From the NCBI GenBank assembly GCA_949299195.1, contig CASFZN010000018.1, forward strand, positions 352,149 to 416,148: a stretch of DNA of 64,000 nt, given 5' to 3'. Positions 3,341 to 31,569 of this stretch are shown here, piece by piece (positions within the stretch are counted from its first letter, which is position 1; every line of letters starts with the position of its first letter). The notes under the pieces are model-generated. The model did not search any database and was not told the DNA's origin. It saw only the letters and a list, made by a program, of their open reading frames with translations. This DNA comes from an uncultured bacterium. Lineage in GTDB: Bacteria > Bacillota_I > Bacilli_A > RFN20 > CAG-826. The position numbers were made by a program, and so were the translations under genes.

Positions 3341-3732
3341 TGGCTAAGAAAACTGCATTTTATGCAACTGGTAGAAGAAAATCCAGCATCGCAAAAGTCT
3401 ATTTAACAGAAGGCACAGGAAAAATTATTGTTAACGATAAAGATGTTAACGAATATTTCCCACACGCAACATTAGTCTTAGACTTAAAACAACCTCTTAC
3501 ATTATTAGGTGTTGAAGCTAAATATGATGTAAAAGCATACGTCCTTGGTGGCGGATTCTCCGGACAAACTGGTGCTTTAAGACTTGGTATTGCTAGAGCT
3601 TTACTCGAAGCTGGTGAAGATAGAGCAACCTTAAAAGTTCATGGTATGCTTACTCGTAACCCAAGAAGTAAAGAAAGAAAGAAATACGGTCTCAAAAAAG
3701 CAAGAAGAGCTCCTCAATTCTCAAAACGTTAA
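3340..3732 (+). CDS. rpsI: 30S ribosomal protein S9
   Basis: C-terminus '[25 protein letters not shown]'; TAATG stop/start overlap with rplM; RBS aggaggt. Confidence 0.95.
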
Positions 3733-3751
3733 AATATTTATTCAAACTATG

Positions 3752-3783
3752 GAAGCATTCTCAAAGAATGCTTCTTTTTTTAT
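3752..3783 (+). terminator. intrinsic terminator after rpsI
   Basis: GAAGCATTCtcaaaGAATGCTTC + T7. Confidence 0.7.
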
Positions 3784-3977
3784 CTGAAATTAAAAACTCG
3801 TTTTAACAACTTGAACAAACAAGTTTATTATTTATAATAAATTTGTAATAAGGAAATTAACGTTTTGTCTTTTAATGTTTTTGATAAAAATTCTAGATTA
3901 AAAGAGATAATTAGAGAGAAAATACTTATTAAAGTTAATTAAAAGATATTTTAAAAATAATAAAAGAGGTAAAAAGA

Positions 3978-4349
3978 ATGAAAATAGTAGGCAATATATT
4001 TTGGTTTATATTTGGAGGAGCTATTTGGGCATTAGTTTCTTTACTAATTGGAGTTTTATGCTGTATCACCATCATTTTAATTCCGGTAGGAATAAAAATG
4101 TTTCATTTTGCAGGTTTTATAGTCGCTCCTTTTGGAAAACACGCTGAATATAATAAAGGAAATGCTGGGAAACTTGTTATTAATATTATTTGGTTAGTTC
4201 TTTTTGGATGGGAAACTATTATTTCCTATGCTTTAACGGGAGTAATTTTGTGTTGTACCATCATTCTTATTCCTTTTGGAATTCAATATTTTAAAACTAT
4301 TCCTTTCCTTACTCTTCCATTGGGGACAACTTTCGTTAAAGATAACTAA
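3978..4349 (+). CDS. YccF-like inner membrane protein (internally duplicated DUF307-type repeat)
   Basis: two repeats of '...LCC(I/T)TIILIP(V/F)GI...' separated by a loop; 123 aa. Confidence 0.55.
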   Translation: MKIVGNIFWFIFGGAIWALVSLLIGVLCCITIILIPVGIKMFHFAGFIVAPFGKHAEYNKGNAGKLVINIIWLVLFGWETIISYALTGVILCCTIILIPFGIQYFKTIPFLTLPLGTTFVKDN

Positions 4350-6707: not shown

Positions 6708-9700
6708 ATGAAATTTAATAAAGAACAACAAAGAGCCATAGATTCTAGAAAGAATTGTTTAATATCTGCTGGAGCAGGAAGTGGAAAAACTGCTGTTTTA
6801 ACCGAGAAAGTTTTTCAACTTATAGAAAAAGGAGGAATTGATCCTAAGAACTTATTGGTTTTAACTTTTACTAATGCAGCTGCTTATTCAATGAAACAAA
6901 AAATAATTCGAGCATTTAAAAAGAATAGTAGTAATAAAGCTTTAGAAATTGTTAGTTCTCATATTGAAACATTTGATGCTTTTTCAGCATTTTTAGTTAG
7001 AAAATACTCGTTTAGATTAAAGGTAGATCCTAATTTTAAAATGGTTAATCAATCACTTTTTGATGCTAAAACCATGGAGATTATTGATAAAATTCTTGCT
7101 ACTTACTATAAAAATGAAGAAAATGAAACTTTTAAAGAATTAATCTATGATTTTGCATTTAAAGGAGACGATACTTTAAAAGAAATTTTATTCACCTTTT
7201 ATAAAAAATTATCTAATTATTCTTTAAAAGAAAAAGAAGACTTTATTTATAATTATGAAGAAAAATATTTAAAAGAGGAGTTTATTGCTTTTTCAATAGG
7301 TAAAATCATTAAAAATAAAGTATTAATCCCATTTTTTAACCATATTTCTTCTCCTCTTTTTGACGTTTTAAATAAACACGAAAAAATCAACGTTGAATAT
7401 AATTATCTTCTCGATACTTTAAAAAATGTTGAAGAAATAGATGAAAATGAGACTATTTCTTTATATCAAAAGATAATTGATTATTTAACTATAAATAAAC
7501 TCCCCCAAATAAGAAAATTCGCCTATAAATCTCAATATGATAAATATAAAAAATTTAAAGATGATTATTTAAAAAAATACGCCGTTTATTTAGATATTGA
7601 TTCTCAAAAAGAATTGTTATTTTCATACAAAAATAAAATTAAATTAATAATTGAAATCTTAATAAAAGTGGATGATGAATTAGAAAAATATAAATCATTA
7701 AATTCATCTTATGATTTTAGTGATATCTCTAAAAAAGCGTCATCACTATTAATCAAAGATGAATTTAATGATATTAAAGAAGAAATTAGAAACACTTATA
7801 AATATATTTTAGTTGATGAATATCAAGATACTAACGATATCCAAGAAGAATTTTTAAATAATTTAACTATAGGAACTAATAATAAGTTATTTGTAGTTGG
7901 AGATGTTAAACAATCAATTTATGCCTTTAGGAATGCTAATCCATCCTTATTTATAAATAGAAAGAATAATTATTTAAATGATTTAAAAAATAACGAAGTT
8001 ATCGATATGAATATTAACTATCGTTCTTTTAGCGAAATTTTAGAACTTATCAATCGTTATTTTAAAGCTAATATGTCTAAAAATAACGGCGGAATAGTCT
8101 TTAACACAATGGAAGAATTGATATACGATAACGAAACTGACTTATATAAAAATAGTGATAAATATATTAATGGCGATCATGGAATGAAGATTATTTTTAA
8201 TAATGCCATTGATTATTCTTTATCTAGAAGACTTTCACTTTATAACGATGCAATGCTAATTATTAAAGATATCTTAAAAAAGATTAATTCTAATTATGAG
8301 GTATTTGATGAAGATTCTCCTACTAAAAGAAGAAAGGTTAATTTTGGAGATTTTGCAGTTTTAACAAGAAAAAATAAAGATTTAGCAGCAATCTTAAAAA
8401 TATTTAAAGAGTTTGGAATTCCTTCCAATATAAAAAGTGATGTTTCTTATATTGATGCTCATCCTATAAGAGTTTTAGAATCTTTAATTAAACTATATTT
8501 AGCTTTTAAAAATAATGATGAATCTAATTTAGTTCATTTATATGTATCCCTTGCTAGAAGTTTTCTTTATTCATATAGTGATGAAGAAATTTATAACCTT
8601 ATTAATAGTGAAAATAAGATAAAACTTATAAAAGATAGTGAAATTTATATAAAAATGAGGAATTTTTATATAAATTTCAATAATATAGAATCCTTTTCTT
8701 TATCTTCTTTAATAGAAAAAATGATTATCGAATTTGATTTTAATAATGCTTTAATAAGACTAGGAGATTATGAAGATAATTTAAATTATTTAGAATATTT
8801 CTATTATTTAGTTAAAGATGTTGAAGGTAATGGTGGAAATATTTTTGATTTATTAAACACCTTAGAGTTAATGGTTGATAATGATATTGAATTAACCGCA
8901 TCTAATTTGGTAGATAATACTAACTCAGTCGAACTTGCAACAATCCATAAATCTAAGGGATTAGAATATAAAATTCTTTATATCCCTTTTAGAAGTGCTA
9001 TAAGTAGAGATAAACCTAAGATGGATGAATTTATGTTATCTAAAGAATATGGAGCTTTATTTAAAAAAAGAGGTTATAGTGGATTTTCTTACACTCTATT
9101 AAATAAGGATTATATTGATGAAGAGGCAAAAAGCGAAAAAGATGAATTTGAAAGACTTCTTTATGTTGCTTTAACAAGAGCCAAAGAATCGATAATTTTC
9201 GTAGGAAATTCATATTCTTCAAAATCCTTCCAGAAAAATTCTTTGGAAAAAGAGTTTTATAATGCATTTAATAAAAAAATTATCCCTAATTTAAAAACTT
9301 TTGATCTATTAGAAAAATATGGAATATTAGATAAAAATAGTAGGCAATTAATTTTGGATTATATCGATGTTTATAACGCTATTGCTATTAAAGATATAAA
9401 AAATAAATGCGTTGAAGAATTCATTAAATTTGAAAGAGAAAAAGACATCATTTCTTTAGGAACCTCTTTAAGAAAAGATAAACCATATCACTATTCAACT
9501 GGTCAAGGAAGCGTAAAAGATTTTTTACCTAATGAAAATGTGTATGAATATTTTAAAGTTTTTGCTACTAATAAAGACTTAATAAATTTAAGTAATTCAA
9601 TTTTATATAACTTAAGAGTTTTGAAGGAATATTTAAATAACGATTTTAGATTCGTTCTTTTTAGACAAAATAAAACTAAAAAGTTTGTTTTAACTAGAAA

Positions 9701-10576: not shown

Positions 10577-10653
<77 letters not shown>

Positions 10654-10684
10654 GTTAATCGATTATTCTAGCGTCAACCAAGAA

Positions 10685-10759
10685 GGGCGCTTAGCTCAAT
10701 GGGAGAGCGCTTCCTTCACACGGAAGAGGTCATAAGTCCGATCCTTATAGCGCCCACCA
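10685..10759 (+). tRNA. tRNA-Val (anticodon CAC), CCA encoded; unusual T-loop TCCGATC
   Basis: acceptor gggcgct/agcgccc, anticodon stem cttcc/ggaag, loop ttCACac. Confidence 0.65.
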
Positions 10760-10768
10760 TTAATACAT

Positions 10769-10844
10769 GCCTTCTTAGCTCATCTGGTAGAGCAACTGAT
10801 TTGTAATCAGTAGGTGGCTGGTCCGAGTCCGGCAGAAGGCACCA
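10769..10844 (+). tRNA. tRNA-Thr (anticodon TGT), CCA encoded; unusual T-loop TCCGAGT
   Basis: acceptor gccttct/agaaggc, anticodon stem actga/tcagt, loop ttTGTaa. Confidence 0.8.
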
Positions 10845-11158: not shown

Positions 11159-11773
11159 ATGTCGATGAAAGATAAATTACATAATCAAGAATTATATTTG
11201 CCAAACGGTGATGAGGTTATGGGTCCTCAAACTAAATGTTTAGAAAAATTATATGAATATAATTTAACAAGACCTTTTGAAGGTAAAAAAAGAGAACAAC
11301 TATTAATAGAAATGTTCGCTGAAATTGGAGAAGGCTGTTACATTGAACCTCCTTTACATTCAAATTGGGGTGGAAAACACATACACTTTGGAAAATATGT
11401 TTATTGTAACTTCAATACAACTTTTATAGATGACACTCATATTTATGTAGGAGATTACACAATGTTTGGGCCTAATGTTGTAGTTGCAACAGCTGGCCAC
11501 CCTATACTTCCTGAATTAAGAGAAAAAGCTTATCAATATAATATTCCTGTTGTTATCGGGAGAAATTGTTGGCTAGGAGCAGGAGTAATCGTTCTTCCAG
11601 GAGTAAAAATAGGTGATAATACTGTGATTGGAGCAGGAAGTGTTGTAACAAAAGACATTCCATCAAATGTTGTGGCTGCAGGTAATCCTTGTAAAGTCTT
11701 AAGAGAGATTGGCGATAGAGATAGAGAGTTTTACTTTAAAGGTAAGAGAATAAATTTTGATATTTTAGATTAA
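11159..11773 (+). CDS. maa: maltose/galactoside O-acetyltransferase (hexapeptide-repeat transferase)
   Basis: left-handed beta-helix hexapeptide repeats 'IGRNCWLGAGVIVLPGVKIGDNTVIGAGSVV'; N-terminal Mac-type domain; 204 aa. Confidence 0.8.
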   Translation: MSMKDKLHNQELYLPNGDEVMGPQTKCLEKLYEYNLTRPFEGKKREQLLIEMFAEIGEGCYIEPPLHSNWGGKHIHFGKYVYCNFNTTFIDDTHIYVGDYTMFGPNVVVATAGHPILPELREKAYQYNIPVVIGRNCWLGAGVIVLPGVKIGDNTVIGAGSVVTKDIPSNVVAAGNPCKVLREIGDRDREFYFKGKRINFDILD

Positions 11774-12375
11774 TAATTAACAATTTTTGTGTTTCGTTGC
11801 TCTTCAAGAGTTATAAGGCTATTAATTATTGTTATTAATTGTTTTTGGATTTTATTGTAGTCGGTTATTTTGTTTTTTAGATGAATAAAAATTATTTTTG
11901 GTTTAATTAAAACTTTATAATAATTTAAGAAATTAAAATAAGTTGAATTACAAATATATCCTCCAGCATTATTAGATATGTTTAGAGAATAAGAGTCGCG
12001 GTATTTCTCGTATATTTCATTAATTATATTTACGTTAAATGTAGTAGGAATTCCTTCTAATTTCGGTTTGTTGATATCAATTAATTCGTTAGTTTTGATA
12101 ATTCCATTATTATCTTTTATTTTTGAATTCATTAAATTTCTAGCAAAAATTTCAAAAGTAATATCTTCTTTATAAGGCGCTTCGCCAAAAAGAAATATAA
12201 AATCGTATTTTTTGTTTTTTAGATCATTTTTAATTGTTTCAAAATTTGAATATGTTACTTTTAATTCTTTTGTTTCATATTTAAAATTATCGATATTTAT
12301 CGATGAAATTATTTCTTTTGAAACATTTATATTCTTTCCATTAAAAGGTTCAAAATAAGTTAATAAAACTTTCAT
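11770..12375 (-). CDS. pcp: pyroglutamyl-peptidase I (pyrrolidone-carboxylate peptidase)
   Basis: N-terminus 'MKVLLTYFEPFNG', active-site 'AGGYICN', 'IFIHL'; 201 aa. Confidence 0.8.
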   Translation of the reverse strand: MKVLLTYFEPFNGKNINVSKEIISSINIDNFKYETKELKVTYSNFETIKNDLKNKKYDFIFLFGEAPYKEDITFEIFARNLMNSKIKDNNGIIKTNELIDINKPKLEGIPTTFNVNIINEIYEKYRDSYSLNISNNAGGYICNSTYFNFLNYYKVLIKPKIIFIHLKNKITDYNKIQKQLITIINSLITLEEQRNTKIVNY

Positions 12376-13687: not shown

Positions 13688-15057
13688 ATGAAAATCGAAG
13701 AAAAAATAAAACTATCAAAAGAATATTATCTAAGTAATAAAACAAGTTGTATTAAAGAAAGAAAAGAAAACATAATAAAACTAAAAAACTTATTATTAAA
13801 ATATAAAAGCGAATTTAATGAAGCATTTAAAAAGGATTTTAATAAGTGTGAATTTGATGTTTTTAATACGGAATTCTTATTAATAATTGATGAATGTAAC
13901 TACATGATTAAAAACATCAATAAACTAACTAAAATAAAAAGAAAGAAAACCTCAAATTTAACTTTCCTTCAAAAGGCTATATATTCCCTGAACCATATGG
14001 AGTAGTTTTAATTATTTCTCCTTGGAATTACCCTTTACAGTTATCTTTTGAACCAATATTTGGTGCTATCGCAGCAGGAAATACGGTTATATTAAAACCT
14101 TCTTCATATTCTAAAAATGTTTCGATGGTTATCGAAAAATTAATTAATGAATTTAATAATTTTGGACTTCTTAATGTTGTATTAGGAGGAAGAGATGAAA
14201 TAACCGATCTATTAAATCAAAGATTCGATTATATTTTCTTTACTGGTTCCCCAAATGTTGGAAAAATAGTTTTAGAAAAAGCTTCTAAACACTTAACTCC
14301 AGTTTCTTTAGAATTAGGAGGAAAATCGCCTTGTATTGTTGATAAAGATGCTGATATTAATCTAGCTGCTAAAAGGATTGTATGGGGTAAATTTTTAAAT
14401 GCAGGTCAAACCTGTGTTGCACCTGACCATATATTAGTTCAAGAAGAAGTAAAAGATGAATTTATAAAGCATGTTAAAAAATATATAAAAGAATTTTATT
14501 ATGATGAGGAAGGCAAACTAACCGAAAACTTCCCTTATATTATCCATGAAAAACACTTAAATAGAGTTTTAAGATTAATTGATCAAAATAAGGTTATAGT
14601 TGGTGGAAAAAATGAAGATAGATTACTTGAACCAACCGTAATGGATAACGTTACTTATAACGATTCAGTTATGAAAGAAGAAATTTTTGCTCCAATCATG
14701 CCAATTCTTACTTTTAAAAACATTGAGGAAATTATAAGTAACTCTAAAACTTTAGAAAAACCTCTAGCTTGCTATTATTTTTCTAAAGATATTAAAAAGG
14801 CCAAAAATATAATGAATCAACTTTCTTTTGGAGGTGGAGCAATTAATGAAACTGTTATGCATTTAACCAACGAAGAACTTCCTTTTGGAGGAGTTGGAAA
14901 TTCTGGAATGGGAAGTTATCATGGTAAAAAAAGTTTTGAAACTTTCTCTCACTATAAAAGCGTTTTAGTTAAAAAAGGTATAGAAATTAATATTAAATAT
15001 CCTCCATACACTAAGAAAAAGTTTGATTTTATTAAAAAATTCACAGGTATTAAATAA
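13688..15057 (+). pseudogene. NAD(P)-dependent aldehyde dehydrogenase (ALDH3/YwdH-like) interrupted by a single-base frameshift near 13964-13968 (or sequencing error)
   Basis: frame 1 gives 'KRKKTSNLTF' then stop; the -1 frame continues 'PSKGYIFPEPYGVVLIISPWNYPLQL...ELGGKSPCIV...' to the catalytic 'NAGQTCVAPD' and 'GGVGNSGMGSYHG'; shift maps to ttcc/ttccc. Confidence 0.7.
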
Positions 15058-17250: not shown

Positions 17251-18018
17251 ATGGGAGAAGAAGTTGTTTTAAAAAATAATAAGAAAGGATTATTTAAAGA
17301 TTTAAATAAATTAGAAAAATTTTTAATGACTCTTTATTTAATTGTTTCAATATTAATTTATATAGTAATTATAGTCTTAGATATTTTAGAAAATTACCAC
17401 TTATCTTTTTCTTTTAAATTTAATGCGGTTATAATTAATGCTTTATATGCGCTATTTGTTCTTCTTTATTCTTATAAACTAAATAATTTAATGGTTTTAT
17501 TTAATTTTTTAGGATTACTTTTAACTATTGGTTCAGATTATTTTTTAGGATATAGGTCCGATAGCGAAAGCGGGATAATTATGGGACTTTTTATTTTTAT
17601 ATTAGTCCAAATTCTTTATTTTATAAGAATATTTATCTATTTAAATAAGAAAGAAAAGAAACTTTATTTAATGCTTACTATTTTTATAAGATTATTCGTT
17701 ATTTTTATAAAGACAATATTAGTAAGAAATCTATTTGATAGTATTTATTATAATCCAATTTATATATTGGCAGTTGTCTATTTTTTACTTATTATCATGA
17801 ATTTCGTTGATAACATGTATATTTCTATAAAATTTGATAGAAGATATTTGTTATTGGCTTTAGGATTTTTACTTTTTATCTTTTGTGACATTAATGTTGG
17901 ATTAAACTTTTTAGTTAATCATAGATACATTTATTTTTTAATTTATCTATTTTATATACCTTCTCAAATTTTAATTGCCTTATCTTCAAACCTTGAAAAT
18001 AAACCTATTAATAGGTAA
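17251..18018 (+). CDS. polytopic integral membrane protein, function unknown
   Basis: first in-frame ATG (ORF-track start is TTG at 17227); 6-8 predicted TM helices, very hydrophobic. Confidence 0.5.
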   Translation: MGEEVVLKNNKKGLFKDLNKLEKFLMTLYLIVSILIYIVIIVLDILENYHLSFSFKFNAVIINALYALFVLLYSYKLNNLMVLFNFLGLLLTIGSDYFLGYRSDSESGIIMGLFIFILVQILYFIRIFIYLNKKEKKLYLMLTIFIRLFVIFIKTILVRNLFDSIYYNPIYILAVVYFLLIIMNFVDNMYISIKFDRRYLLLALGFLLFIFCDINVGLNFLVNHRYIYFLIYLFYIPSQILIALSSNLENKPINR

Positions 18019-18046
18019 TTTATATTAAAAAAAAAGAAATCATATT

Positions 18047-18979
18047 ATGATTAATATTGATAAATTATTAGAGGAAAAAGTTGTTATAACTAAAGAAGAT
18101 GTCGAATATTTAGCAGATAATTATGAAACTGGAGAAGGGATTTATTCCGACATAAAGAAAAATTATAATCCAAACACTCTTTATTCACTTACATATTTCT
18201 ACGCTTCAGGAATTTCAAGTCAATGTGATTTTTCAGAAGAAATCGGTGAAGAAGAGCTCCTTTTCTCAATAAGACTTTTAGTTAATTAATATCAAAATTA
18301 TAAAAATTATAAAGGTAATAATGTTGGGATTAAGGAAGATGGATACTATAATTTTCCTGATATATGCACCAAAATCGCTTCTTTTTATCCACCTTTTAAA
18401 GAACATTGCCGGGAAGGAAAACAACCAAAAGTTAAATTAAGTAAAGAGAATTGTAAAAAATTATTATTAGAAGCATTAGAAGAAAATCCAGGAAATAATT
18501 ATGCTTACTTTTTATTAGCAAGATTTACTCTTTTAGAGGATAAAGGCTTTAAACGAACTGAAAAAGCAAAAGAATATTTATTAAGAATTCGTCATTATGA
18601 ATCTGAAGAAGAAAAAACTTACTTCTATGACGCCTGTGATTTTGATGTAACAGCAGTTGATTTTGTAGAAGCTGCTTTAGGGTGTTTACGCAATTATGAC
18701 TTTATAGATTGCTTTAAGTTATTAAAAGCAGGTTATGATTTTGAAAAAGATTATGAAGATGAAGATAAATTCATCCCAGTTATATATTATTTAGTTGCCA
18801 CTTATATGGATGGTATTGGAACAAAAGTTAATATGAATAAGGCTAAAAAATTAATTGAGGAACTTTTAATTATTTATAATAAAAACAAATATGCTAAAGA
18901 AATAGATGAAATAGTTTCTAAAGATCCATTAGGAATTATTGATAAATATTTTAGCTTAAAAGATTCAGCAAAAAGTTAA
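18047..18979 (+). pseudogene. Sel1/TPR-like repeat protein gene interrupted by an in-frame TAA at 18287-18289 (N-terminal 80-aa ORF plus a 230-codon continuation with no start codon)
   Basis: same frame translates cleanly before and after the stop; downstream part 'AYFLLARFTLLEDKGFKRTEKAKEYL...YYLVATYMDGIGTKVNMNKAKKLIEEL' (Sel1-like) has no in-frame ATG/GTG/TTG for about 170 codons. Confidence 0.5.
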
Positions 18980-19007
18980 AAAACTCACGAGAAATCGTGA
19001 GTTTTTT
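18978..19007. terminator. bidirectional intrinsic terminator
   Basis: aaaaACTCACGAgaaaTCGTGAGTttttt. Confidence 0.7.
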
Positions 19008-19032
19008 ATTAGAATAATAGCCTTTAAATTTA

Positions 19033-20244
19033 TTAGTTAGCGTAATTATCAAAGTAGCCTTGGATATAAACAATAGGAGTACCTTTATCGCCACTTCCGC
19101 TAGTAAGATCTGCTAAAGATCCAAGCAAATCAGTAATTTGGCGAGGAGTAGTACCTTCACTAACCATATTTCCAACTAAAGAAGCTTCTTTTTCTTTAAT
19201 CTTTTTAATCATTGCTTCTTTTAATTCTTCGCCATTTAAATCCTTAAATTCATTATCTGCTAAGAATTTAAGTTTTAATTCATTTGGAGTTCCTTTTAAT
19301 CCGCTTGTAAAGCCAGGAGAAACAACAGGATCTGCTAATTCCCAAATTTTACCTTGAGGATCTTTAAAAGCTCCATCTCCATAAACCATAACTTCAACAT
19401 GTTTAGAAGTTAATTCGAGTAATTTGGCTTGAACTTTTTCGACTAATTCTTGGCAATTAATTGGGAATAATTTGATCTTTTCCTCACTAGCTTTATTAGA
19501 ACCGAGCAATCCATAACTTGGATTATACCCACTATTATTAATTGATTCAGTTAAGATATCATCAAGCGAATAAACATTTTCTCCACCATTATTTAATAAT
19601 AATTTTTTGGTTCTTTTTCTAGTATGGATATCAGCATTAATTACATTTTTAGTATGTTTTAAAACTTCGAGTGGATTATTTGAGAAAATAATTTCAACCT
19701 CACTCCCAGATTCTTTAATTAAAGAAGAGTAGTACTCAACATAATCAACACCTGTAAATTCATGAACATTATTTTTAAACAATTCACGATATTTTTCTAA
19801 AGTTAAGGTATCAACATACGGATTAATTCCATGTTGATCTAAATCTTCAACCCTTACTAAGTGGTTACCTACTTCATCACTAGGATAAGATAAAACAAGT
19901 ACAATTTTTTTAGCAGCTAAAGCAATTCCTCTAAGTAAAATTGCAAATCTATTTCTTGAAAGAATTGGGAAAATAACGCCTAAATCATCGATTCTTTCAT
20001 CCTTTCCTTTATTAAATTTTTTTAATAAGTCATCTCTTATATCAAGAGTTGTAGCATAGTTACCTTGACTTCTAGCAACAATTGATTCAGTGATACAGAC
20101 TACGTCTTTATCATGAATCTCAAATCCTTCATTTTTAGAAGCTTCAATGATACTGGTTGTAACAATATCAATTAAGTTATCTCCTTCTTTAATAATTGGA
20201 GCTCTAATTCCTCTAGAAGTAACTCCGACTTTTCTTTCTGACAT
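19033..20244 (-). CDS. CofE-like (F420-0:gamma-glutamyl ligase family) protein, function unknown here
   Basis: C-terminal 'GTTPRQITDLLGSLADLTSGSGDKGTPIVYIQG' resembles the CofE/FbiB-N ligase fold; 403 aa. Confidence 0.5.
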   Translation of the reverse strand: MSERKVGVTSRGIRAPIIKEGDNLIDIVTTSIIEASKNEGFEIHDKDVVCITESIVARSQGNYATTLDIRDDLLKKFNKGKDERIDDLGVIFPILSRNRFAILLRGIALAAKKIVLVLSYPSDEVGNHLVRVEDLDQHGINPYVDTLTLEKYRELFKNNVHEFTGVDYVEYYSSLIKESGSEVEIIFSNNPLEVLKHTKNVINADIHTRKRTKKLLLNNGGENVYSLDDILTESINNSGYNPSYGLLGSNKASEEKIKLFPINCQELVEKVQAKLLELTSKHVEVMVYGDGAFKDPQGKIWELADPVVSPGFTSGLKGTPNELKLKFLADNEFKDLNGEELKEAMIKKIKEKEASLVGNMVSEGTTPRQITDLLGSLADLTSGSGDKGTPIVYIQGYFDNYAN

Positions 20245-29370: not shown

Positions 29371-29446
29371 GGTTCGCTAGCTCAGCTGGCAGAGCAACTG
29401 ACTCTTAATCAGTGGGTCCGGAGTTCGAATCTCCGGCGAATCACCA
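29371..29446 (+). tRNA. tRNA-Lys (anticodon CTT), CCA encoded
   Basis: acceptor ggttcgc/gcgaatc, anticodon loop cTCTTaa, canonical T-loop ttcgaat. Confidence 0.9.
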
Positions 29447-30206: not shown

Positions 30207-30235
30207 TCTTAATCTATAATTATTTTTGTAGATAA

Positions 30236-30330
30236 AGTTATGGGGGCTTGTGATACAGGCTGAGATAAAAGTAGTTACTTTTGACCATTTAACCTGATCT
30301 AGGTAATTCTAGCGTAGGTAAAACTCTTTT
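30236..30330 (+). promoter_or_regulatory. TPP (thiamine pyrophosphate) riboswitch aptamer
   Basis: tgGGGGcttgtgataCAGGCTGAGAtaaa...ttgACCatttAACCTGATCTaGGtAATtCtAGCGTAGGtAAaa matches the THI-element consensus (CUGAGA, ACCUGAUCU, AGCGUAGG). Confidence 0.8.
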
Positions 30331-30379
30331 TTATTGGATAAAACTAATTAAATAGTAGTCCTTAAAAATAATTAAAGAA

Positions 30380-30444: not shown

Positions 30445-31569
30445 ATGATAGATGAAATTAAAAAAGAAAATGATATTACTGATAATTCTTCGACAACAGT
30501 ATCGAATAAAAAGTTTGATATTTATCGAGGAATTATAGGAATAGTTTTACTATTGGCAACTTACATATTTTTAGTTACTGATGGTTTTACGCTTTCAACT
30601 TTAAATGAAGAAGAAGTCACTCTTTCTTTATTTGATGCAATATTTGGAAATAGTGAATTAAAAATAGGATTAAATCCAATTGGATTAACTAGTTTTATTT
30701 TAATTTCTTGTGCAACTTTGTTATTTATTGTTGGATTTATTTTTAAAATAATAGGAAATAAAAAAGCATCAAACAGCTTATTTATTTCTTCATCAATTAC
30801 ATTATTTCTAGGATATATTTTCTATTTAGCAATTATTTATACATTTTATTATGTAGTTCCAGGAGCTAGTGAGATTATACCTTCTGAATATGGGATATAT
30901 TTTGTTACTCCATCAATGATAATTTATTCGGTAATTATCGCAATTTCTTTAATTATGATTTTAGCTTCTATTGAAAGAAAAGATGGCAGTAAATTTAAGG
31001 TAAAAGAGATTTCAGAATTAGCAATGATGGTTGCTTTAGCAATAGTTTTAGATCAATTTGTAAAAATTCCAATTGGTTCTACCGGAGGAAGTATTAACTT
31101 TTCCGCTTTTCCTTTAATGATATATGGGATTAGACATGGCTTTCTTAAAGGAATATTAGCTAGTTCAATCATTTTTGGAATTATTACGAATTTAATAGAT
31201 GGTTATGGTCTTTTATGTTATCCATTTGACTATTTAATTGCCTTTTTAGGATATGGGTCTAGTGGCTTATTCTATTACATTTTTAAGTCCACTATTTTTA
31301 AGAATAAATCGAGCGAAAATGACAATTTAATTTTGATTATTATCTCTTTAATTTTAGGAGCAATCACCTTATTTATTATAAGAATGATTGGTTCAACCAT
31401 GTCTTCGATGATTCTTTGGGAATATGAACTTGGCGCTGCTTTACTTTATAACATTTTATATGTTGGTCCTAGTGCCTTGGGATGTTTAGTAATTTCATTA
31501 CTTTTATCTCCTGTTATCAATATGATTAATAAAAGGCAAAAAACTTCTTATTTAGAAAAATTAGCATAA
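30445..31569 (+). CDS. TPP-riboswitch-controlled polytopic membrane protein; C-terminal half resembles an ECF-transporter S-component (ThiT-like), putative thiamine/precursor transporter
   Basis: 374 aa, about 10 TM helices; second half 'MMVALAIVLDQFVKIPIGSTGGSINFSAFPLMIYGIRHGFLKGILAS' S-component-like; directly downstream of riboswitch. Confidence 0.5.
   Translation: MIDEIKKENDITDNSSTTVSNKKFDIYRGIIGIVLLLATYIFLVTDGFTLSTLNEEEVTLSLFDAIFGNSELKIGLNPIGLTSFILISCATLLFIVGFIFKIIGNKKASNSLFISSSITLFLGYIFYLAIIYTFYYVVPGASEIIPSEYGIYFVTPSMIIYSVIIAISLIMILASIERKDGSKFKVKEISELAMMVALAIVLDQFVKIPIGSTGGSINFSAFPLMIYGIRHGFLKGILASSIIFGIITNLIDGYGLLCYPFDYLIAFLGYGSSGLFYYIFKSTIFKNKSSENDNLILIIISLILGAITLFIIRMIGSTMSSMILWEYELGAALLYNILYVGPSALGCLVISLLLSPVINMINKRQKTSYLEKLA

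Follow-up and report, generated by a model that had tools for sequence, protein, structure and literature searches.

A probable recent nonsense pseudogene, inherited within one strain lineage of an uncultured low-GC bacterium

An open reading frame that is cut by a single in-frame TAA and then continues for more than two hundred codons in the same frame raises the question of whether the gene is broken, whether its stop is read through, or whether one base of the assembly is wrong. Such a frame lies in the 64,000-nucleotide stretch of bacterial DNA analysed here (the window). The first-pass annotation had described it as starting at ATG 18047, stopping at TAA 18287-18289 and remaining open to 18979 with no start codon for about 170 codons, and all of these coordinates were recovered in our analysis. 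The complete frame, from ATG 18047 to TAA 18977-18979, comprises 310 sense codons, and the first in-frame ATG, GTG or TTG past the internal stop is the ATG at 18806, 172 codons downstream (Table 1). In the deposited gene calls the locus appears as an 80-aa gene and a 57-aa gene (18047-18289 and 18806-18979). The window is identical to the ENA metagenome assembly ERZ16268187 scaffold_1 (426 kb; window position 8047 corresponds to position 1 of L002), and the 80-aa ORF annotated on that scaffold has exactly the product of 18047..18289.

The 229 codons between the two stops are not open by chance, since a stretch of this length free of stops has a probability of 3.8e-10 at the per-codon stop probability of 0.090 given by the composition of the window (26% G+C). 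Among 20 shuffles of the whole window the longest stop-free run reached 158 codons and the median was about 98. Six other pairs of same-frame ORFs in the window are joined across a single TAA. In five of them the downstream ORF has 100 aa or more and its start codon lies 2-7 bases past the stop, which makes them ordinary operon neighbours; the sixth involves 11993-12358, which runs antisense to the gene at 11770-12375. Nowhere else in the window does a TAA interrupt a gene with no restart after it, and this locus alone resembles a broken gene. It is flanked by a gene for a multi-pass membrane protein of 255/263 aa, which is without a Pfam match, and by a convergent F420-0:gamma-glutamyl-ligase-like gene (19033-20244, minus strand). 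The convergent pair share one hairpin terminator, which is intact and conserved and, apart from position 18996, invariant in the alignment of contigs. No Rfam RNA genes were detected between 10.8 and 29.3 kb of the window.

Table 1. Coordinates of the interrupted gene and its associated features in the window
Feature	Position	Strand	Remarks
5' remnant of the gene	18047..18289	+	80 sense codons and the premature stop; sole part still translatable
Premature stop TAA, codon 81	18287..18289	+	TAC (Tyr) in the intact allele; the lesion would be a C>A transversion at 18289
3' remnant of the gene	18290..18979	+	229 open codons; native TAA at 18977-18979
Single recognisable Sel1-like motif	18785..18853	+	aa 247-269, YYLVATYMDGIGTKVNMNKAKKL; below the Pfam Sel1 threshold; aligns to several repeats of P0011
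Poly-A tract and ribosome-binding region	18027..18036	+	From the alignment across contigs
Hairpin terminator	18977..19008	.	14-pair stem, found on the minus strand; the plus strand also has a T-run

To place the stop in its evolutionary setting we compared the locus with its orthologs. A word-indexed search of 5.8 billion proteins recovered a sole homologous cluster, formed by nine proteins, all 310 aa long, that match the conceptual readthrough product at 95-97% identity. Tyrosine occupies codon 81 in all nine, inside the invariant stretch LLVN-Y-YQNYKNYK, and at the DNA level L001 has TAC in place of the TAA of the window. Since the orthologs carry TAC at codon 81, these data indicate that the lesion is one C>A transversion at 18289 that converted a TAC (Tyr) codon into TAA. 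The earlier suggestion that orthologs be inspected for a sense codon at this position was thus answered by a TAC for tyrosine in nine orthologs, and a recent nonsense pseudogene, one of the readings then put forward, is the one borne out by intact orthologs with Tyr at codon 81. The contigs that carry the intact allele are syntenic with the window and share about 97% identity with it along 17 kb, which points to conspecific strains, and intact alleles are present in other projects too. An exact 40-mer around the stop found no match in the JGI metagenomes for either allele.

The aligned contigs showed how the two alleles are distributed among strains. Position 18289 is A in 8 and C in 8 of the 16 contigs. 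Among the ENA contigs the A is present in the window, L014 (ERZ16268170), L015 (ERZ16268174), L017 (ERZ16268164) and L019 (ERZ17292902, a k87 contig), and among the Logan contigs in L018 (ERR10610563), L020 (ERR10610567) and L021 (ERR10610555). These contigs represent five different haplotypes, drawn from five ENA assemblies; three of the haplotypes were also found in the independent single-run assemblies of Logan, each ENA/Logan pair probably deriving from one sample. Over 2-8 kb the identity to the window is 99.0-99.6% for contigs L014, L015, L017 and L021, and the TAA haplotypes have four linked amino-acid changes in common (N41, S63, F193 and A283). In all, five differences are fixed between the TAA and TAC lineages, every one of them non-synonymous or nonsense. 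These results indicate that the TAA contigs belong to one closely related strain lineage in which the stop is inherited. The 57-aa ORF was found on nine contigs and was called only where the gene is broken. One of the contigs, L017 (1-2208), loses collinearity with the window at 17677, inside the upstream membrane-protein gene, and continues with GreA and small ORFs; L021, the Logan contig of the same haplotype, is collinear with the window to 17408. Either L017 was mis-joined during scaffolding or its sequence is rearranged.

The polymorphism within each lineage differs in kind. In the TAC lineage the gene has 14 non-synonymous (N) and 16 synonymous (S) sites, which departs from neutrality (p = 2.4e-5), whereas the 18 polymorphic sites of the TAA lineage (15 N : 3 S) fit a neutral expectation of 81% N (0.81, from Nei-Gojobori site counts; binomial p = 1.0), and the two ratios differ from each other (Fisher p = 0.016), with the qualification that these small counts (18 and 30 sites) are of polymorphic sites and not of phylogenetically independent events. 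Downstream of the stop alone, the TAA lineage has 10 N : 1 S versus 11 N : 13 S in the TAC lineage (p = 0.023). Polymorphism is also denser in the gene than in its surroundings in the TAA lineage, with 18 sites in 933 nucleotides versus 15 in 2856 for three flanking genes (3.7-fold, p = 0.0003); the TAC lineage shows no such excess (30/933 in the gene, 78/2856 in the flanks). The flanking genes of the TAA lineage display 9 N : 6 S, and with so few sites the difference from the target gene is not significant (p = 0.24). Homoplasy or recombination is visible among the haplotypes of the 16-contig alignment. The constraint seen in TAC strains indicates that the intact gene is under purifying selection there, and therefore that it is a real gene.

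Further lesions were detected in the TAA lineage. L014/L018 and L015/L020 carry a 1-nt deletion (T) at 18107 that shifts the frame at codon 21, and L015/L020 have in addition a second nonsense change, TAT>TAA, at codon 26; both are absent from the window haplotype. Upstream of the gene the intact alleles read A6-GG and the window reads A9-G, with loss of the GGA core of the Shine-Dalgarno sequence (G>A at 18035). Across the TAA lineage the tract is A7-G, A7-GG or A9-G, and of the four haplotypes of this lineage with sequence at the site, three have lost one G of the core. This loss would weaken the ribosome binding site.

Taken together, these data are best explained by an ordinary, recent and inherited nonsense (unitary) pseudogene, a reading to which we assign a probability of about 93%. 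An ancestral gene of 310 aa, restricted to an uncultured low-GC (~26%) species, would have suffered a single C>A change in one strain lineage, turning codon 81 from TAC (Tyr) into TAA. Translation would then stop after 80 residues and leave the remaining 229 codons start-less and untranslated. The whole lineage, whose members are locally 99.4-99.6% identical to the window, would have inherited the lesion, after which the gene would have drifted neutrally and begun to gather further lesions, the downstream frame being still open merely since too little time has elapsed. A full-length product is presumably absent from the TAA allele. We take TAC to be the probable ancestral state on the basis of the open downstream frame and the constraint on the TAC lineage, and not of a rooted tree. 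The kind of feature is already known and is not novel. As in recent unitary nonsense pseudogenes of host-associated and reduced-genome bacteria, a point mutation has created a stop while conspecific alleles are intact, the frame is open downstream, selection is relaxed, and secondary frameshift and nonsense lesions are present. Nothing essential separates this gene from them, except that it is an orphan without an outgroup.

Two other readings had been considered along with the pseudogene from the start. According to one, the stop is a base-call or assembly error and the real genome has an intact gene with TAC or another sense codon. The window is indeed a metagenome scaffold (ERZ16268187 scaffold_1), and the exact 80-aa fragment of its haplotype was found on two contigs only, both longer than 200 kb, which may be one assembly deposited twice. 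The same A at 18289 nevertheless recurs in four other haplotypes from other samples, three of them seen also in the Logan assemblies and so recovered by independent assemblers; it travels with the four linked non-synonymous changes common to the lineage; and no Y81 version of the window haplotype exists among the proteins of a 15-billion collection. We consider the error refuted, with next to no probability left to it. According to the other reading, programmed or tolerated readthrough, or tRNA suppression, still produces the full-length protein from the TAA allele. The 229 downstream codons still open in the window and the start codon and terminator that the gene has kept count in its favour, and the locus has in common with programmed readthrough an in-frame stop followed by a long, start-less open continuation. 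It departs from it in that the stop is not conserved across orthologs (TAC in 8 of the 16 contigs) and that, in the TAA lineage, the part downstream of the stop is unconstrained and changes as a neutral sequence would (10 N : 1 S); sister haplotypes of this lineage also carry a frameshift before the stop and one more nonsense codon. TAA is moreover the usual terminator in this genome, and the stop stands in a TAA-T context; TAA-U is an efficient termination context in bacteria, as studies in E. coli have established. No stimulatory RNA structure was found downstream of the stop, the 100 nt from 6 nt before it (18281-18380) folding like their shuffles (z = 0.24), and no suppressor tRNA was found in the 64-kb window, which holds four ordinary tRNAs. 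Readthrough is contradicted by the neutral downstream evolution and the extra lesions, and we regard it as extremely improbable, if a little less so than an error.

The remaining rival accepts the truncation and holds that it was selected, either as an adaptive gene loss, for example of a protein targeted by phage or host, or for a new functional mini-protein of 80 aa. It would account for the fixation of the truncated allele across a lineage recovered from at least five assemblies, for the association of all four fixed amino-acid differences with that allele, and for the two Sel1-like motifs (YLADNYETGEG and LYSLTYFYASG) that can be seen by eye in the 80-aa remnant. The lesions, however, all fall within a single closely related lineage, which amounts to one loss event without convergence. 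The 5' remnant itself has 5 N : 2 S, the frameshift at codon 21 and an apparently weakened ribosome binding site, which speaks against a conserved mini-protein. We judge a selected truncation very unlikely, and the more mixed version, in which the 80-aa fragment is kept as a mini-protein, or low-level readthrough is combined with a selected loss or attenuation in a successful lineage, slightly less likely again.

The genetic code itself was considered separately. The stops of the 48 long ORFs (at least 150 codons) in the window are TAA in 44 cases, TAG in 4 and TGA in none. The first-pass annotation had argued that a reassigned code is unlikely, other genes ending at TAA, and this count agrees: with TAA ending 44 of the 48 long ORFs, code reassignment is excluded. 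TGA, which ends none of the 48, interrupts no genes in the window either and seems to be hardly used in this genome of 26% G+C.

We then asked what the intact gene might have encoded. The locus had been labelled a Sel1-repeat gene, a label of which part is justified: one repeat-like motif was found, but its Pfam Sel1 scores of 12.4 bits in the window (E = 0.25, aa 248-269) and 17.2 bits in the intact ortholog P0001 (E = 0.0078, aa 247-269) are below the gathering score of 30.7 bits, and the label overstates the similarity. This is the only Sel1 HMM match in the protein. Visual inspection adds two Sel1-like segments akin to YYLVATYMDGIG (aa 247-258), namely YLADNYETGEG at aa 21-31 and, within the stretch aa 45-56, YSLTYFYASG at aa 46-55. 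TPR_17 also scored below threshold in Pfam, at 13-14 bits, NCBIfam gave no meaningful match, and a sequence search of the PDB retrieved no relative. When 1.84 billion cluster representatives were searched exhaustively with HMMER, just two proteins matched. One, P0010, is an 80-aa 5' fragment that stands as its own cluster representative in a 50%-identity protein library; the other, P0011, is a protein of 880 aa with 15 bona fide Sel1 repeats, several of which align mainly to residues 209-290 of the target (library-wide E = 2.2e-4). An AlphaFold2 single-sequence model of the target protein is all-helical and unreliable (mean pLDDT 42.6).

The protein therefore bears a partial likeness to the Sel1-like repeat (SLR) proteins (PF08238), which consist of several tandem TPR-related alpha/alpha repeats of about 36-44 residues. 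Its motif YYLxxxYMDGIGTxxNxxKAxxL fits the Sel1 consensus, its sole distant relative among the 1.84 billion representatives has 15 Sel1 repeats, and it is predicted to be all-helical. It differs from them in having one HMM repeat, below the gathering score, in that most of its 310 residues match nothing, and in its lack of a signal peptide; many bacterial SLR proteins are secreted or periplasmic. The ancestral product is predicted to be a cytoplasmic, helical protein of 310 aa, at best distantly Sel1/TPR-like.

The distribution of the gene is narrow. It was found in none of the 185,579 GTDB species representatives, among which the species itself has no close relative. The best relatives of the F420-ligase-like neighbour (loci L022-L101) share 66-70% identity with it, and a tblastn search with the target against the 80 loci around these relatives (at most 70% identity) retrieved nothing (E > 2.9). 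In the two relatives of lowest GC content, L097 and L075, unrelated genes occupy the syntenic position. These searches indicate that the gene is a species-restricted orphan, which is why it has no outgroup. The lowest-GC matches of the F420-ligase-like gene are annotated as 'uncultured Mollicutes bacterium' and as a 'Bacilli bacterium' MAG. The organism probably belongs to an uncultured low-GC lineage of Bacillota with an anaerobic lifestyle (NrdD/NrdG are present).

Gene decay was also detected elsewhere in the species. An aldehyde dehydrogenase gene (13688-15057), located 4 kb upstream, is split in the window into ORFs of 105 and 310 aa by the loss of one T near 13955 (CTCAATATTTAAC > CTCAAATTTAAC). 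The protein has 456 aa in the conspecific L003, L005 and L007 and also in L014 and L015 of the TAA lineage. Since the 105-aa fragment is present on L103 (ERZ16268178) as well, from another sample, this lesion is real, and such lesions are not unusual in the window strain. In L005 (ERZ16268191 scaffold_469, 3729-4331) a 2-nt deletion shifts the frame of a pyroglutamyl peptidase (Peptidase_C15) gene whose window copy (11770-12375) is intact. Pseudogenes specific to one strain or another seem to be common in this species. Both 1-nt deletions convert AATATTT into AAATTT (18105-18111 in L014 and L015; 13950-13960 in the window), a shared context that is either a coincidence or a small mutational hotspot. 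Avoidance of AATATT as a restriction site was rejected, 167 occurrences being found in the window against 145 expected.

For annotation, the locus is better recorded as one pseudogene than as genes of 80 and 57 aa. Debris of this kind enters protein databases as 'families', as exemplified by P0010. Together with the frameshift in the aldehyde dehydrogenase gene, the locus shows that strain-specific gene decay is under way in an uncultured low-GC species, and the intact gene is a real, species-restricted gene of modest interest in its own right. The window also carries tRNA genes for Ile-GAT, Val-CAC and Thr-TGT (10577-10844) and for Lys-CTT (29371-29446), and a TPP riboswitch (Rfam RF00059, 67.8 bits) at 30230-30338, upstream of the ORF at 30445-31569.
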